This document shows positions 5,709 to 38,899 of a stretch of 64,000 nt of DNA, in pieces; the stretch's first letter is position 1, and each line of letters starts with the position of its first letter. Location of the stretch: the NCBI GenBank assembly GCA_963786935.1, contig CAWBAN010000001.1:513158-577157 (forward strand). Reading direction: 5' to 3'. The notes beneath the pieces were generated by a model. It searched no databases and had not been told where the DNA came from. It worked only from the letters and a program-made list of their open reading frames with translations. A program made the position numbers and the translations under genes. The stretch is from an uncultured bacterium. Lineage in GTDB: Bacteria; Krumholzibacteriota; Krumholzibacteriia; Krumholzibacteriales; Krumholzibacteriaceae.

Positions 5709-7225
5709 TTCGGAGCGATATCCGGAACGTGATCCTGGCCGCGGCGCTCTTCGCCGTGCTGCTCCTGCCGCTCCGGGACGCGATCGTCGACGACACGTAC
5801 ATTCACCTCCAGTACGCGACGAACCTCGCCGAGGCAGGGGAGCTGTCCTTCAACCGCGGGGAGCCGACGTACGGCGCCACGAGCCCGCTCTGGGTGGGGA
5901 TCCTCGCGCTGTCCGTGAAAGCGGGCGCCGATCCGCTCGTCGCGTGCCGGATTCTCGCCTGGCTCTTCGCCGTCGCCTCGATCGCGCTCGTCTACCGCAT
6001 CGCGTCGCGGGGTGAGGACGGCGCCTGGACGGCGGCGGCCGCCGCGTTCATACTCGCGGCGGAGGCGTGGTTCGTGCGATGGAGCGCCGTCGGCATGGAG
6101 ACCTCCTTCGCCGTGTTCATGACGCTCGTCGTCTTCGATCTCGCGCGCTGCGCGGCGCGGTCGGCGCGCCGTTCGGCGCTCCTCGGCGGGGCGCTCTTCC
6201 TCGCGGCGCTCTCGCGCCCCGAGGCGATCCTGCTCGTCCCGCTCGCGGCGTTCGCGCTGCTCTTCGCGCGGGGGACGCCGCGGCGATTCGCGTTTCTCCT
6301 CGTGTTCGTTCCGCTCTTCGCCGCGTGGCTCGTCGTGATCGAGCGGCACACGGGGACCATGTTTCCGCTCACCGCGGGAGCGAAGCAGGGCGCGATCGAT
6401 TTCTCCGCCGCGCTGTTCCGGCGCGCCGCGATTCCCGCGCGGATCATGGGGGCGACGCTCCTGCTCCCGTGGGCGGCTCTGCTCGCCGGCATCGCGGCGG
6501 GGCTGATCCGCCGCCGCTCGCTCGGCGCGTACCTCACGGAATCGGGGAGCCTGCGTGATGAGCCGGGAGCGCTCCTCATGCTGCTCTGGGCGTTCTCGCT
6601 CCCCGTCGCGTACGTCGCGCTCGATTTTCAGGTGCTCTCGCGGTATCTCGTGCCGGTCGTTCCGCCCGTGATCGTGCTCGGCCTCGCGGCGTGGCGGAAG
6701 CTCGTCGGCGCTCGGGCGGTGCGCGCCGGCGCGCGCCGGGCGGCGCTCGTCGCCTTCGCCGCGGTCGCCGTCGCGCAGAGCGTGCTCGTCTACGAGATCG
6801 CCGTCGTGCCGCCGACGCGCGCGTTCTCGGCGGCGCTCGAGACGACGCTCGCCGACATGGGGCGCTGGCTTGACCGGAACGCGCCACCGGACGCCCTCGT
6901 CGCCGCGCCCGATATCGGCGCCGTCGGGTATTACTCGCACCGCCGGATCCTCGACCTCGGCGGCCTCGTGACTCCCGAGATCAACCGCATGCGGCGCGGG
7001 ATCGACGTCGAGCGAATCATCGACGAGGGGATGTACCTCCGGTTCGGTCCGGATTACCTCGTCGACCGGCACCGGACGCCCGCGCGCTTCGCCGGACGGA
7101 TCATCGGCGGCGTCTCCTTCGAGCCGGTCATGCGGGGAGAGGCGCCCAATCTCGGCATCAGGAAGCCGGAGCCGGTGGTCTACGTGCTCTACCGGCTCGA
7201 GCGGGTCACGGAGGCGGGCGAATGA
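5705..7225 (+). CDS. GT-C fold membrane glycosyltransferase, ArnT/PMT-like (GT39/GT83 family)
   Basis: The N-terminus DDTYIHLQYATNLAEAGELSFNRGEPTYGATSPLW matches polyprenyl-phosphate-sugar-dependent glycosyltransferases. It is a multi-TM protein with a soluble C-terminal domain. ATG 5705 overlaps the upstream stop. Confidence 0.65.
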   Translation: MIRSDIRNVILAAALFAVLLLPLRDAIVDDTYIHLQYATNLAEAGELSFNRGEPTYGATSPLWVGILALSVKAGADPLVACRILAWLFAVASIALVYRIASRGEDGAWTAAAAAFILAAEAWFVRWSAVGMETSFAVFMTLVVFDLARCAARSARRSALLGGALFLAALSRPEAILLVPLAAFALLFARGTPRRFAFLLVFVPLFAAWLVVIERHTGTMFPLTAGAKQGAIDFSAALFRRAAIPARIMGATLLLPWAALLAGIAAGLIRRRSLGAYLTESGSLRDEPGALLMLLWAFSLPVAYVALDFQVLSRYLVPVVPPVIVLGLAAWRKLVGARAVRAGARRAALVAFAAVAVAQSVLVYEIAVVPPTRAFSAALETTLADMGRWLDRNAPPDALVAAPDIGAVGYYSHRRILDLGGLVTPEINRMRRGIDVERIIDEGMYLRFGPDYLVDRHRTPARFAGRIIGGVSFEPVMRGEAPNLGIRKPEPVVYVLYRLERVTEAGE

Positions 7226-8070
7226 CGGATACCCGCGGCACGAACGCCCGGCGGGGCGGGGGAGGAGCGGCAGCCGCCGAGCCCGTCATCCCGGCGGGGA
7301 TCCCCGCCGATCGGTTCCCCGACCTGCTGCGCAACTGGTTTCTCGGCTCCCGCGCGCGGTCTCACCTGAGCAGGAGGCGCTACCGTGAGATCACGGGCAT
7401 GCTTCGTGGAACGCCGCGCGGGCGCGCCCTCGACGCGGGGTGCGGGTGGGGATACAATCTCTTCCTCCTCGCGCGCGAGGGAATGGAGCCGTTCGGCATC
7501 GACATCGTGCAGAACGATTTTCTCGCGGCGAGAATGATCGCCGAAGCGAACGGCTACGAACCGCTGCTCGCCGGCGCGGACGTGAGCGCCCTCCCGTTCG
7601 CGGCTGACTCGTTCGCCGCGGTCGCCGCCGTCGAAACATTCGAGCACATCTTCGAGCCGGATCGCGCGGGCGCCGCCCGCGAAGCGTGGCGCGTGCTCGA
7701 GCCGGGAGGGGCGCTCGCGATCTCGACGCCGAACTACTACTCGATCGTCGAAACGGGAAAGCGCGTGATCGTCAGATGGGGCTTCCTCAAGCGTCTATTC
7801 CCGACGATGTGCTATCCGGCCGGAATCGTGAAGCGGGAGGATTACCATCCGTACCGCTATCACCGGCCCACGCCGCCCCGCGAGATCGTCAGGCTGTTCG
7901 AGGCGGCCGGATTCCGCGTCGAGCGTACGCGGACGATCATATTCATATGGAAGAACGTGCCCGATTTTCTCTTTCCGGTCGCGCGATTCTGCGAGTCGAT
8001 TCTCGAGCGCACGCCCCTCGTGAAGAACCTCGCCAGCACGCTCGTCGTGCTCGCGAGAAAGCCGTCCTGA
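7222..8070 (+). CDS. Class I SAM-dependent methyltransferase
   Basis: The SAM motif I LDAGCGWGYN and the Methyltransf_11-like spacing (ADSFAAVAAVETFEHIFEP...LEPGGALAIS) are present. ATGA start/stop overlap with the upstream gene. Confidence 0.8.
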   Translation: MTDTRGTNARRGGGGAAAAEPVIPAGIPADRFPDLLRNWFLGSRARSHLSRRRYREITGMLRGTPRGRALDAGCGWGYNLFLLAREGMEPFGIDIVQNDFLAARMIAEANGYEPLLAGADVSALPFAADSFAAVAAVETFEHIFEPDRAGAAREAWRVLEPGGALAISTPNYYSIVETGKRVIVRWGFLKRLFPTMCYPAGIVKREDYHPYRYHRPTPPREIVRLFEAAGFRVERTRTIIFIWKNVPDFLFPVARFCESILERTPLVKNLASTLVVLARKPS

Positions 8071-8097: not shown

Positions 8098-8127
8098 GTC
8101 GAGATGAACGCTCGACTGAATTTTTTT
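8098..8127 (+). terminator. Possible rho-independent terminator after the polysaccharide locus
   Basis: The stem GTCGAG/CTCGAC with a 7-nt loop is followed by TGAATTTTTTT. The stem is short. Confidence 0.35.
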
Positions 8128-8153
8128 CATTTCCCTGTGGGCATAGCAGCTAA

Positions 8154-8182
8154 CCCTATTTTTATTAATAAGTTATAAATTG
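8154..8182 (+). promoter_or_regulatory. AT-rich promoter-like motif CCCTATTTTTATTAATAAGTTATAAATTG (copy 1 of a repeated element)
   Basis: A strong AT island inside a ~70% GC genome. It contains TATAAAT. A near-identical motif occurs at 37474..37499. Confidence 0.4.
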
Positions 8183-8202
8183 CAGAAAAGAGTGTTCCCC
8201 GC

Positions 8203-8235
8203 GACTTTCCTATTGACATGGTGGGAGAAAGTGGG
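8203..8235 (+). promoter_or_regulatory. dcw promoter region: TTGACA hexamer followed by three direct GTGGG repeats at 10-bp spacing (MraZ operator)
   Basis: TTGACA is at 8203-8208. GTGGG is at 8211, 8221 and 8231, which is the same arrangement as the MraZ binding repeats of E. coli and Firmicutes. It lies about 95 bp upstream of mraZ. Confidence 0.6.
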
Positions 8236-8328
8236 TTAGTGTGGGACCACGCTTTACTTTTAAGCGCTCTCAGATGCAGGGATAGGCAGTAGGGCTCTCG
8301 AAATCACGGTCAAGGCAGCGGTCGAGAA

Positions 8329-8778
8329 ATGGCGGAGAAACCCAACAGAAAATTCATCGGCATGTTCCCCTGCACGCTCGACGCCAAGTCGCGGCTGACG
8401 ATTCCGTCGAAGTTCCGCGAGCTCGTTCCCGGCGAGGAGGGCTCCAAGATCCTCGTCATCAGCCGCGGCAAGGAGCGCTGCCTGTATCTGTTCACTCCCG
8501 ACTATTTCGACTGGATCATCGACCAGCTCGGGCTCCTGCCGCCGGGACCGCAGCAGCGGAACCTGATCCGGTATTACAGCAGCGAGTCGGAGCATCTCAA
8601 GGTCGACAAGGTCGGCCGGGTGCAGATGAGCGCGCGCCATCTCGAATCGTTCGGTCTCGCGAAGAACGTCGTCGTCGTCGGCGGCCTCACCCATATGGAA
8701 GTGTGGAAGCCCGAGGAGTACGAAAAGATCATGGAGTCCGCGGACGACGCGTATCACAACGGGGAATGGCAACTGTAG
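8329..8778 (+). CDS. mraZ: Transcriptional regulator MraZ
   Basis: Two MraZ/SpoVT-AbrB-like repeats are present (FPCTLDAKSRLTIPSKFRE ... VDKVGRVQMSARHLESFGL). The true start may be the internal ATG at 8362 (MFPCTLD). Confidence 0.9.
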   Translation: MAEKPNRKFIGMFPCTLDAKSRLTIPSKFRELVPGEEGSKILVISRGKERCLYLFTPDYFDWIIDQLGLLPPGPQQRNLIRYYSSESEHLKVDKVGRVQMSARHLESFGLAKNVVVVGGLTHMEVWKPEEYEKIMESADDAYHNGEWQL

Positions 8779-8790
8779 GACGGTGAGCGC

Positions 8791-9168
8791 ATGAAGATCT
8801 ACCGGAGCGACAAGGGAGGCATCGGGCTGTGGAAGCTCTCCGGAACGGTGGAGCGTGACGATGCCGTTATGCTGCTCAGCTCGCTCAGGGATTTGCGGGA
8901 ATCGAGCCGCGGGTGCTTCATCCTCGATTTTGAAAGGGTCAAGCACGTCGACTACCGCGCCTTCAACGTTCTCGAGGACGGCTACCCCGAGGGGGCCCGC
9001 GTGATCCTGAGCGGATTCAGCGATTACGTGCTCAATATCTTCGCGTTCGTGACGAGAGGGGGCGTGTTCCCCGTCTACACCGATTGGCGGAAGGCCCTCA
9101 GGCATCTCGTCGTCGAGCGCGGGAAGCTCGGCACCCCCATCCCCGCGGGCTCCGCGGGAAGCGAGTGA
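8791..9168 (+). CDS. STAS-domain protein (anti-sigma-factor-antagonist-like) inserted between mraZ and rsmH
   Basis: The pattern follows SpoIIAA-type STAS (ILDFERVKHVDYRAFNVL ... GARVILSGFSDYVLNIFAF ... FPVYTDWRKAL). The usual phosphorylatable Ser is replaced by YRAF. It is tightly spaced within the operon. Confidence 0.55.
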   Translation: MKIYRSDKGGIGLWKLSGTVERDDAVMLLSSLRDLRESSRGCFILDFERVKHVDYRAFNVLEDGYPEGARVILSGFSDYVLNIFAFVTRGGVFPVYTDWRKALRHLVVERGKLGTPIPAGSAGSE

Positions 9169-28221: not shown

Positions 28222-28410
28222 TCAGACCTTCTTGACGGCGCCGCCCTTGATGCAGCGCGTGCAGACGTACGCCCGCTGCGGCTCGCCCTTGATCTCGATG
28301 CGGATCTTTTGCAGGTTGGGAAGCCACCGGCGCTTGGACAGGTTGTGCGCATGGCTGATGCTGTGTCCGGAGCCCGGCTTTTTCCCGCATATGGCGCATT
28401 GCTTCGACAT
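28222..28410 (-). CDS. rpmB: 50S ribosomal protein L28
   Basis: MSKQCAICGKKPGSGHSISHAHNLSKRRWLPNLQ...CTRCIK matches L28 over the full length, including the zinc-binding cysteines. A sigma70-like TTGCCA-N15-TATAAAT lies upstream on the minus strand. Confidence 0.9.
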   Translation of the reverse strand: MSKQCAICGKKPGSGHSISHAHNLSKRRWLPNLQKIRIEIKGEPQRAYVCTRCIKGGAVKKV

Positions 28411-28479
28411 CTGGTATCCTCCTGATAGCCGTAGAGTCCGTACAATTTATAATAAAGCGAAGGGCTTGGCAAGCTAAAT

Positions 28480-36417: not shown

Positions 36418-36433
36418 TGGCACGGTTCTGGCT
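36418..36433 (+). promoter_or_regulatory. Candidate sigma54 (-24/-12) promoter TGGCACGgttcTGGCT
   Basis: GG and GC lie at the canonical 10-bp spacing, but the -12 element is TGGC rather than TTGC. It sits about 35 nt upstream of the 36469 start, with an AAGGGGGA ribosome-binding site in between. Confidence 0.35.
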
Positions 36434-37343: not shown

Positions 37344-37401
37344 AGATGCCGCGCCGCCGGGAATGAGGCGGATTCGACAGCGGCTGCGTTGCACTTTTCA
37401 C

Positions 37402-37436
37402 GGGCCCTCTCTCAATACCGGAGAGGGCCTTTTCCA
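37402..37436 (+). terminator. Rho-independent terminator
   Basis: A 9-bp GC-rich stem GGCCCTCTC/GAGAGGGCC with a 9-nt loop is followed by TTTTCC. Confidence 0.6.
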
Positions 37437-37473
37437 TGAGTGTCTCCCGGAACGCCGCGATATCTCCCAACCA

Positions 37474-37499
37474 CCCTATTCTTAATAAGTTAAAAAATG
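37474..37499 (+). promoter_or_regulatory. AT-rich motif CCCTATTCTTAATAAGTTAAAAAATG (copy 2 of the element at 8154)
   Basis: It matches the mraZ-upstream motif closely (CCCTATT..TTAATAAGTTAwAAAwTG). It lies just upstream of the sigma54-like site. Confidence 0.4.
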
Positions 37500-37516: not shown

Positions 37517-37532
37517 TGGCATGGTCCTTGCG
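37517..37532 (+). promoter_or_regulatory. Candidate sigma54 promoter TGGCATGgtccTTGCG
   Basis: It matches TGGCACG-N4-TTGCW at 14 of 16 positions with exact GG/GC spacing. It sits about 155 nt upstream of the mglA-like start. Confidence 0.5.
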
Positions 37533-37688
37533 CTCGTTCCGAAGTGCCGGGGTGGGCGCTTCGCAGCGTCACGGCAGGGTCAGCACCCCCAGATCGAGCA
37601 TCGAGGAATCTGCTCCAGAACACGGCTTCCGTGCGCGCGCATCGGGTGAGCAGCATTCCCACCCCGGCGCAGATTGAAAGGGAGTGAT

Positions 37689-38789
37689 ATGGCAGTCTTC
37701 AATTACGCCGGCGGAGAGATAAACGCGAAGATCGTCTATTACGGCCCCGGTCTCAGCGGCAAGACGACGAATCTCGAATTCATCTATTCGAAGCTTCCCC
37801 GCGAGAACAAGGGCAAAATGGTCTCGATGAAGACGCGGACCGACCGCACCCTCTTCTTCGATTTCCTGCCGATCGATATCGGCGAGATCAACGGGATGAA
37901 GGTGCGCTTCCTTCTGTACACGGTGCCCGGCCAGGTGTATTACAACGCCACGCGCAAGCTCGTGCTCAAGGGAGTGGACGCAGTCGTGTTCGTCGCGGAT
38001 TCGGCCCCCGACCGCATGCAGGAAAACAAGGAAGCCATCCAGAATCTCGAAGACAACCTGAACGATCTCGGCTTGACCCTGAAGACGATTCCGTGGGTGA
38101 TCCAGTACAACAAGCGCGATCTGCCCAACCGGATCGAGCGCGAGATGATGGACCAGGAGCTCAATACCGACGCCGTGCCGAGCTTCGAAGCGGTCGCGAG
38201 CAAGGGGGGCGGCGTGTATGAGACGTTCGCCGGAATCGCGAAGCTCGTTTTCAAGAACATGCAGGAAGAGCTGAAGGATCCCGAGCGGAAGCGCGAGGCG
38301 CGCGAGCCGCGCAGCCGGGAGCGCCTCAACATCGAGGTCGTCGCGAAAGGCTCCGTGAAGACCGAAGCGGCGACGGGCGGGGACGACTACCGGAATTGCG
38401 CGGGGAAGAAGGAAGAGGAACCCGCTTCCGTTTCCGAGTTCGTCGACAGCGTGCTGAAGGACCGCGTCGATCCGCAGAGCATCGATCTCGGCGCGACGCG
38501 TGAGGGATACGAGGAATACGGCCATCTCGTCGATCTGAACGGCGCCGACGCGAAGGAGCCGGGGGCTTCCCCGCAGGCGACGAAGCCGGGGGAGATTCTC
38601 TCCGATTCCGTCGAGAAGCTCAAGGCGAAGGTCGCGCTGCAGGAGGCCGAGGAGCCTCCGAAGACGGAGCCCCGGCCGCGCCTCGACGTGGTCGAGGAGA
38701 AGCTGATCCGGGTTCCCGTGCGTCTCTCGAAAGAGGAGATGGCGAAAGAGATCCGTCTGAACATCATCATCGATATCGCCGTCGATTGA
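37689..38789 (+). CDS. mglA: MglA-family Ras-like GTPase with ~175-aa charged, low-complexity C-terminal extension
   Basis: The G-domain (about aa 1-190) aligns closely with Myxococcus MglA: EINAKIVYYGPGLSGKTTNL (P-loop), TRTDRTLFFDFLP (switch I), LYTVPGQVYY (switch II) and IQYNKRDLP (NKxD). The Glu/Lys/Pro-rich tail (38270..38789) is in the same frame. Confidence 0.85.
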   Translation: MAVFNYAGGEINAKIVYYGPGLSGKTTNLEFIYSKLPRENKGKMVSMKTRTDRTLFFDFLPIDIGEINGMKVRFLLYTVPGQVYYNATRKLVLKGVDAVVFVADSAPDRMQENKEAIQNLEDNLNDLGLTLKTIPWVIQYNKRDLPNRIEREMMDQELNTDAVPSFEAVASKGGGVYETFAGIAKLVFKNMQEELKDPERKREAREPRSRERLNIEVVAKGSVKTEAATGGDDYRNCAGKKEEEPASVSEFVDSVLKDRVDPQSIDLGATREGYEEYGHLVDLNGADAKEPGASPQATKPGEILSDSVEKLKAKVALQEAEEPPKTEPRPRLDVVEEKLIRVPVRLSKEEMAKEIRLNIIIDIAVD

Positions 38790-38899
38790 ACGCGCGAAAA
38801 GACTTGACCCGATACGAGACGGGGTGTGAAAATCGGAACCGGAGCGCTCGACAGGCTCCGGTTTTTCGATTATATTTGCGTTATAGAGGGGGAGCCGCC

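Follow-up and report, generated by a model that had tools for sequence, protein, structure and literature searches.

Sequence-specific IHF is known mainly from Proteobacteria, and to our knowledge no IHF has been characterised in the uncultured FCB-group lineage to which the DNA studied here belongs. Likewise, we know of nothing reported on transcription control in uncultured Krumholzibacteriota-like FCB bacteria and of no description of sigma-54 control of an MglA-family gene. The MraZ protein binds GTGGG-like repeats with a 10-bp period. The sites of IHF are characterized by four consensus elements, namely, WATCAA, a TTR after a gap of 4 bp, a pair of AA-type steps separated by 9 bp, into which prolines are inserted, and a 5' A-tract that is present only in some sites (PMC1874591). 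In Desulfovibrio, experimentally verified functional IHF sites are described at -42, -43, and -79 between the enhancer and the sigma-54 promoter, and their identity to the consensus is only 67–78% (PMC3897727).

The window, that is, the whole 64-kb stretch of DNA that was analysed, has a GC content of 66% and not the 70% named in a preliminary description of it; nearly all of its genes are on the plus strand, and its short AT-rich blocks number just eleven. The GTPase homologues found at ~55% identity carry the name Candidatus Krumholzibacteriota, and the T9SS sorting domain found nearby is in keeping with the FCB group. Two AT-rich blocks of this window, CCCTATTTTTATTAATAAGTTATAAATTG at 8154–8182 and CCCTATTCTTAATAAGTTAAAAAATG at 37474–37499, are real, conserved copies of one symmetric motif of ~24 bp. 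They had been described beforehand as near-identical and as lying in promoter regions, and this was confirmed in both respects: the ungapped comparison of the two sites gives 26 identical positions of 38, the shared 18-mer TTAATAAGTTAWAAAWTG with at most 3 mismatches is present in the window only at 8165 and 37482, and each site is flanked on one side by the terminator of the preceding gene and on the other by the promoter of the operon that follows (Table 1).

Table 1. Window coordinates of the features around the two sites; functional names of DNA elements are predictions.
Feature	Position	Strand	Remarks
Methyltransferase gene	7222–8070	+	Upstream of site 1
Terminator-like hairpin and T-run of the methyltransferase gene	8098–8128 (hairpin 8098–8116)	+	24 nt before site 1
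Site 1, predicted IHF-type site upstream of mraZ	8145–8179	+	35-bp span matched to the lambda H' register
Dyad core of site 1	8152–8174		AAC 8152–8154, kink step 8158–8159, AA 8167–8168, GTT 8172–8174
A-tract	8184–8189	+	A in 7–9 of 9 relatives; 9 nt after site 1
CCnCGCGAnnTT box	8197–8208	+	Conserved; between site 1 and the mraZ -35
Predicted mraZ promoter/operator	8213–8245	+	-35 TTGACA 8213–8218, 18-nt spacer, -10 TAGTGT 8237–8242
mraZ	8329–8778	+	First gene of the dcw cluster, downstream of site 1
133-aa gene, function unassigned	ends 37343		Upstream of site 2; followed by hairpin and T-run
TTGCACTTTTCA	37389–37400	+	Conserved; precedes the hairpin after the 133-aa gene
Covarying hairpin GGGCCCTCTCTC...GGAGAGGGCC and T-run	37402–37429 (region to 37433)	+	Ends the 133-aa gene
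Site 2, same motif upstream of the mglA-like gene	37462–37496	+	AAC 37469–37471, AA 37484–37485, GTT 37489–37491
Predicted sigma-54 (-24/-12) promoter TGGCATGGTCCTTGC, TGGCAT-N5-TTGC	37517–37531	+	mglA-like operon
366-aa MglA-like GTPase gene	37689–38789		Downstream of site 2

The 18-mer at the same tolerance was met in 0 of 100 dinucleotide shuffles, and when both AT-rich blocks were shuffled just 0.2% of trials gave a shared 11-mer. From 31 mglA upstream regions of other genomes, with the window's own site excluded, a weight matrix was built and run over 128,000 window positions on both strands, and it placed site 2 first (32.7 bits) and site 1 second (32.6 bits), the next independent match being below 15 bits; compared with random sequence of its own AT-rich composition, site 1 has p ~7e-5 per position. 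Strong matrix matches in 357 kb of related DNA were only the orthologues of these two sites, with no copy elsewhere in ~290 kb of related loci, and the other matches in relatives belonged to AT-rich loci (L181, L186) or were the reverse-strand image of the same sites, which is seen because the consensus is dyad-symmetric. Being so rare (2 copies in 64 kb), the motif is not a general promoter. All-AT patterns produced at least 120 matches in a trial scan of viral contigs, and the pattern ACCCTATTN{0,5}TTAATAAGTTA searched across the genome-contig collection gave 19 chance matches, in AT-rich genomes.

For the footprinting, relatives of the same Krumholzibacteriota-like kind within the FCB group were used, represented by 32 mglA-like and 9 mraZ upstream regions. 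Homologues of MraZ are scarce (12 proteins were found), and the contigs carrying them provided 9 distinct upstream regions with conserved gene order, for which an ungapped alignment on TTGACA was made. For the GTPase, 42 loci were obtained by scanning metagenomes; 32 of them had usable upstream DNA, and 30 of these orthologs were aligned on the motif. In the mraZ set the left half of the motif is marked by A15 (9/9), C17 (8/9), T21 (7/9), and T22 (9/9), with A16 in 4/9, and the right half by A30 (8/9), A31 (7/9), G35 (7/9), T36 and T37 (9/9 each), and R38 (9/9). The mglA set shows A15 in 30/30, A16 in 28/30, and C17 in 23/30, a weak left TT at columns 21–22 (12/30 and 16/30), and then A30 in 28/30, A31 in 24/30, G35 in 20/30, T36 in 24/30, and T37 and A38 in 30/30 each, followed by AAAA. 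The two independent ortholog sets keep the same columns in the same register, namely, AAC, (TT), AA, and GTT(A/R).

The common consensus AAC-N3-TT-N7-AA-N3-GTT is its own reverse complement, and the five symmetric column pairs (15/37, 16/36, 17/35, 21/31, and 22/30) have complementary consensus bases, so that a dimer is predicted as the binding protein. The AA and TT steps follow one another with spacings of 6, 9, and 6, out of helical phase, and the centres of the half-sites are ~15 bp apart, which would put them on opposite faces of straight DNA; this spacing suggests a wrapping or bending protein rather than a rigid helix-turn-helix dimer. The A-tracts are placed differently relative to the core at one locus and at the other.

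Site 1 lies ~40 bp upstream of the -35 of a sequence which looks like a sigma-70-type promoter with MraZ operators, with the predicted start site at ~8249, so counted the shared core falls at about -104 to -70. The promoter is overlapped by GTGGG direct repeats of 10-bp period (8221–8225, 8231–8235, and 8241–8245), which we take to be of the MraZ type and which together form a predicted MraZ autorepression operator. The columns of promoter and repeats are invariant in 9/9 lineages, and the -10 reads TAnnGT in all relatives. The left kink step of site 1 is AT in the window and TT in 7–9 of 9 relatives, and the conserved A-tract between site 1 and the promoter, at about -65 to -60, may be UP-like. 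A sigma-54 promoter was not found at site 1. The gene order behind mraZ shows an ORF of 125 aa without Pfam match (8791–9168) between mraZ and rsmH, which is an extra, uncharacterised member of the dcw cluster of this lineage; it is present as 125 aa, or as 133 aa in the P0011 lineage (L194–L196), wherever the contig reaches past mraZ.

At the mglA locus the motif stands before the sigma-54 promoter, whose TGGCA and TTGC are invariant in 32/32 orthologs down to ~52% protein identity, with the consensus TGGCA(C/T)-N5-TTGC; one relative at 45% protein identity has a weaker promoter. Counted from the predicted sigma-54 start site (~37543), site 2 spans about -81 to -47, its dyad about -74 to -51, and its core -63 to -51, and this is the textbook position for IHF. 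The left step of site 2 in the window is CC, not TT, and directly after the core there is a conserved A-tract TTAAAAAA (37490–37497), the -51 to -47 part of which is invariant. In 22 sequences the TTA of the motif is 27 nt away from TGGCA, and in 7-8 others it is 28 nt away; this distance is narrow and not rigid, comparable to the 12–15-nt spread of the post-promoter linker, and so the argument from spacing is weaker. Upstream of site 2, no palindromic or otherwise clear enhancer (UAS) was found, and only TTGCACTTTTCA and the hairpin after the 133-aa gene are conserved there, between about -154 and -110. Covariation of the stem from clade to clade is terminator-like; the stretch 37389–37433 could be just a terminator, and the 12-mer TTGCACTTTTCA in it could also be the otherwise missing enhancer to which the sigma-54 activator binds. 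Neither an rpoN gene nor a gene of an enhancer-binding protein is present in the window or in the DNA retrieved from relatives, and a convincing second sigma-54 promoter was found neither at mraZ nor elsewhere. A weak sigma-54-like match, TGGCACGGTTCTGGCT at 36418–36433, is intergenic, precedes a small plus-strand ORF, has one mismatch in the -12 element, and has no AT-rich motif upstream.

Several further observations concern the mglA-like operon itself. In the encoded protein a small-GTPase domain of ~195 aa at the N-terminus is joined to a C-terminal extension of ~170 aa with many charged residues (E, K, R, and D), which is kept in relatives (361–450 aa), and the gene is followed by a receiver-domain gene and then by a TPR-protein gene. 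Between the sigma-54 start and the mglA-like ATG a strongly conserved leader of ~150 nt (37543–37688) is located, in which a long-range closing helix is formed by pairing of GCCGGGGTGGG (37546–37556) with CCCACCCCGGC (37658–37668), with inner helices in addition. Compensatory changes were noted in 8 of 23 predicted pairs, and the clade of L151, L154, L156, and L158 has a shorter leader of ~83 nt. Rfam gave no match in the window or in the leader, for the latter not even at E <=10, and the leader is a candidate for a new structured leader or riboswitch-like RNA.

Of the explanations offered in the preliminary description, the binding site of a global regulator or nucleoid protein is the one now favoured, in the narrower form of a site for an IHF/HU-type architectural protein which bends DNA and serves the sigma-54 and dcw promoters; its chance of being right is put at a little below even. 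The conserved columns of the motif are dyad-symmetric and appear to map onto all four IHF elements at the right distances. When the E. coli core WATCAANNNNTTR was scored at 136 strand-register combinations (68 offsets per strand) of 80-nt segments, the best register in both ortholog sets was the homologous plus-strand one, with 6.89/9 in the mraZ set versus a mean of 3.24 (sd 0.99, z ~3.7) and 5.69/9 in the mglA set versus a mean of 2.93 (sd 0.85, z ~3.2), the latter rising to 6.17/9 when aligned on the motif. The cores taken singly, TATTAATAAGTTA at site 1 (8163–8175) and TCTTAATAAGTTA at site 2 (37480–37492), agree with WATCAANNNNTTR at 8/9 and 7/9 positions, respectively, and a single 8/9 match is not above chance in the window (7 found vs 5.1 expected). 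In the mraZ set TT 21-22 and AA 30-31 are exactly 9 bp apart. In the same register, 12 columns are conserved in the mraZ set, and the lambda H' sequence, as we assume it to read, agrees with 10 of these. AA and TTR are strongly conserved. Conservation is weak at the C of WATCAA (3/9 in the mraZ set and 15/30 in the mglA set) and, among the mglA orthologs, poor at the WAT positions. An invariant A, usually as AA(C), stands at columns 15-16, where the H' A-tract has its 3' end, with no tract of 4–6 nt, and the IHF consensus does not cover the invariant A-tract that comes after TTA at site 2, nor the 8184–8189 A-tract. A tblastn search of the window and of 357 kb from related loci detected no HU/IHF homologue.

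According to this reading the element would be a ~24–35-bp binding site of a dimeric protein of the IHF/HU type. At the mglA-like operon a sharp bend at -74 to -51 would bring an enhancer-binding ATPase, either bound upstream or recruited to the promoter, to the closed sigma-54 complex, and at the dcw operon the site would shape the upstream DNA around RNA polymerase at the presumably MraZ-repressed promoter. The identity of the protein, the bending of DNA, and the regulatory effect are what we infer; the presence of the motif at both loci, its conserved columns with their symmetry, and the sigma-54 promoter at a spacing that varies by 1 nt are established.

The dyad may also serve as operator for an undescribed regulator specific to Krumholzibacteriota-like bacteria, or be an alternative-sigma promoter, with mraZ-dcw and the sigma-54-driven mglA-like operon making up one regulon, which is unlikely. 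The operator version, in which a different lineage-specific dimeric transcription factor would co-regulate the dcw and the mglA-like polarity/motility operons, is rather unlikely. It is favoured by the maintenance of a dyad-symmetric consensus at two functionally distinct operons, by the rarity of the motif, as expected of a specific regulon, and by the imperfect agreement with WATC in the IHF core. Also, nothing but the motif is conserved from the terminator to the sigma-54 promoter at the mglA locus. There the sigma-54 activator itself could be the protein that binds it. However, the half-site spacing is awkward for a rigid dimer on straight DNA, and no regulator or enhancer-binding protein gene adjoins either operon; as for the activator, -74 to -51 is unusually near for an enhancer, and site 1 is not accompanied by a sigma-54 promoter. 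The promoter version is improbable. ECF consensus examples such as GGAAT-N18-GTT and TGTAAC-N17-CGAC resemble the outer triplets of the motif, and an ECF-type alternative-sigma promoter with AAC as -35 and GTT(A) as -10, 17 nt apart, would stand in tandem upstream of the sigma-54 promoter of mglA and of the sigma-70-type promoter of mraZ. AAC-N17-GTT is conserved in both ortholog sets, the upstream bases often give TGTAAC or CGCAAC, and both copies are oriented toward the downstream genes. Against this, the AA inside the would-be spacer is conserved to the same degree as AAC, with 28/30 and 24/30 for the mglA orthologs and 8/9 and 7/9 for the mraZ ones, and the spacer bases T22 (9/9) and T21 (7/9) of the mraZ set are explained by the dyad and not by a promoter model; also, the start site predicted for such a promoter has no conserved sequence, the distance to the sigma-54 promoter differs by 1 nt only, and a simple sigma-70 scan is empty at both regions.

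Two explanations that need no dedicated protein are weaker still. A UP element or intrinsically curved AT-rich DNA touched by the alpha C-terminal domains of RNA polymerase is very improbable: the DNA upstream of both promoters is AT-rich, and there are A-tracts, invariant before the sigma-54 promoter and conserved before the mraZ one, but the shared core is separate from these A-tracts, and at site 1 it is past the range of UP elements. The phase of the AA/TT steps and the conserved C and G in dyad arrangement also speak against it, and the classical UP element proposed in the preliminary description was given up on the position of the core and on the differing A-tract offsets. The chance likeness of two AT-rich intergenic stretches is next to negligible; there are two known copies only, and intergenic DNA of GC-rich genomes is locally AT-rich, but the shuffling results, the cross-genome matrix p value against the AT-rich null, and the same columns in both sets oppose it.

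The reading of the AT-rich blocks as promoters of their own was not upheld. A consensus scan found no sigma-70-like promoter at either site region. An extended -10 or a lineage-specific promoter element had been suggested, and its TATAAA/TAAAAA part is unconserved upstream of mraZ: in place of TATAAATTG, tried as -10 or extended -10, the mraZ relatives carry TTGCACTGT, TTAACCAAC, and TTACGTCGA, the TATAAA of site 1 being replaced by GCACTG, AACCAA, ACGTCG, and similar hexamers, and for site 2 an A is found in 28/30 orthologs at what would be position -7. CCCTATT was likewise dropped as part of the motif, since its match needs a 3-nt gap, is out of register, and is unconserved in relatives. The TTGACA or TTGACG reported ~20–35 bp after each block is correct for site 1, with TTGACA 31 nt after it, and is not for site 2, where TTGACG (37510) follows after only 11 nt; as a -35 this TTGACG was rejected, for it has no -10 after it, abuts the -24 element of the sigma-54 promoter, and is conserved in the closest clade only.

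A related sequence had also been pointed out upstream of rpmB, and ATTATAAATTG is indeed present there on the minus strand (28453–28443), but it is not the motif (matrix below 12 bits). As a third copy it was discarded, being the -10 region of a TTGCCA-N15/16-TATAAA promoter, whose TTGCCA is found also in the relative L164. The divergent region 28413–28479 between rpmB (28222–28410, minus) and recG (28480, plus) has back-to-back -10 hexamers in one AT block, TATAAT for recG and TATAAA after TTGCCA for rpmB. The comparison with the FCB/Bacteroidetes-type sigma consensus (TTTG / TAnnTTTG), which had been advised, was negative for both sites, and TAnnTTTG is present in the window only at 38871 and 48050. 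The first of these lies in the stretch 38840–38899, where the terminator hairpin after the mglA-like gene is followed at once by GATTATATTTG and, 20 nt on, by the ATG of the receiver-domain gene; TATATTTG within GATTATATTTG agrees with the Bacteroidetes -7 consensus, and GATTATATT is conserved in the relatives L151 and L152.

In summary, these data provide a first regulatory map for two key operons, with a predicted MraZ-autoregulated dcw promoter and a predicted sigma-54-dependent mglA-like operon, both headed by the same conserved, symmetric, IHF-like site, the mglA-like operon having in addition a conserved structured leader. If the site belongs to an IHF/HU-type protein, the sequence-specific architectural control of sigma-54 promoters reaches a phylum far from Proteobacteria. 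If it is the site of a specific regulator, division and polarity genes would be joined in one regulon, and either an operator or an alternative-sigma promoter would mean that cell division is coupled with polarity or motility. Under any reading the motif gives a concrete handle for metatranscriptome analysis and in vitro binding tests.

Among known promoter types, that of Bacteroidetes (-33 TTTG, -7 TAnnTTTG) is relevant as the host is in the FCB group, and it is matched by TATATTTG before the receiver-domain gene (38871), whereas the mraZ and rpmB promoters are unlike it and look sigma-70-like (TTGACA and TTGCCA, respectively). UP elements, the sites of alpha-CTD at -40 to -60, share with the two loci AT-rich upstream DNA with A-tracts. 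ECF promoters, with AAC as -35, CGT or GTT as -10, and a spacer of roughly 16–18 nt, differ from the motif, which has no GG before AAC and no CG in its -10 and is dyad-symmetric. In comparison with IHF sites the motif has a poorly conserved WATC, AAC instead of an A-tract of 4–6 nt, and an extra invariant A-tract after TTA at the mglA locus, where no enhancer was identified; its consensus is also more symmetric than that of IHF sites, which suggests a homodimer. With the IHF sites of lambda attP (H'), Pseudomonas Pu, nifH, and Desulfovibrio orp1/orp2 the motif appears to have in common the span of ~35 bp, CAA-N4-TTR, a 9-bp interval between the AA/TT steps, and A-rich DNA on the 5' side, all at the same relative distances, and the position of the site 2 core relative to the sigma-54 promoter matches the known IHF cases.
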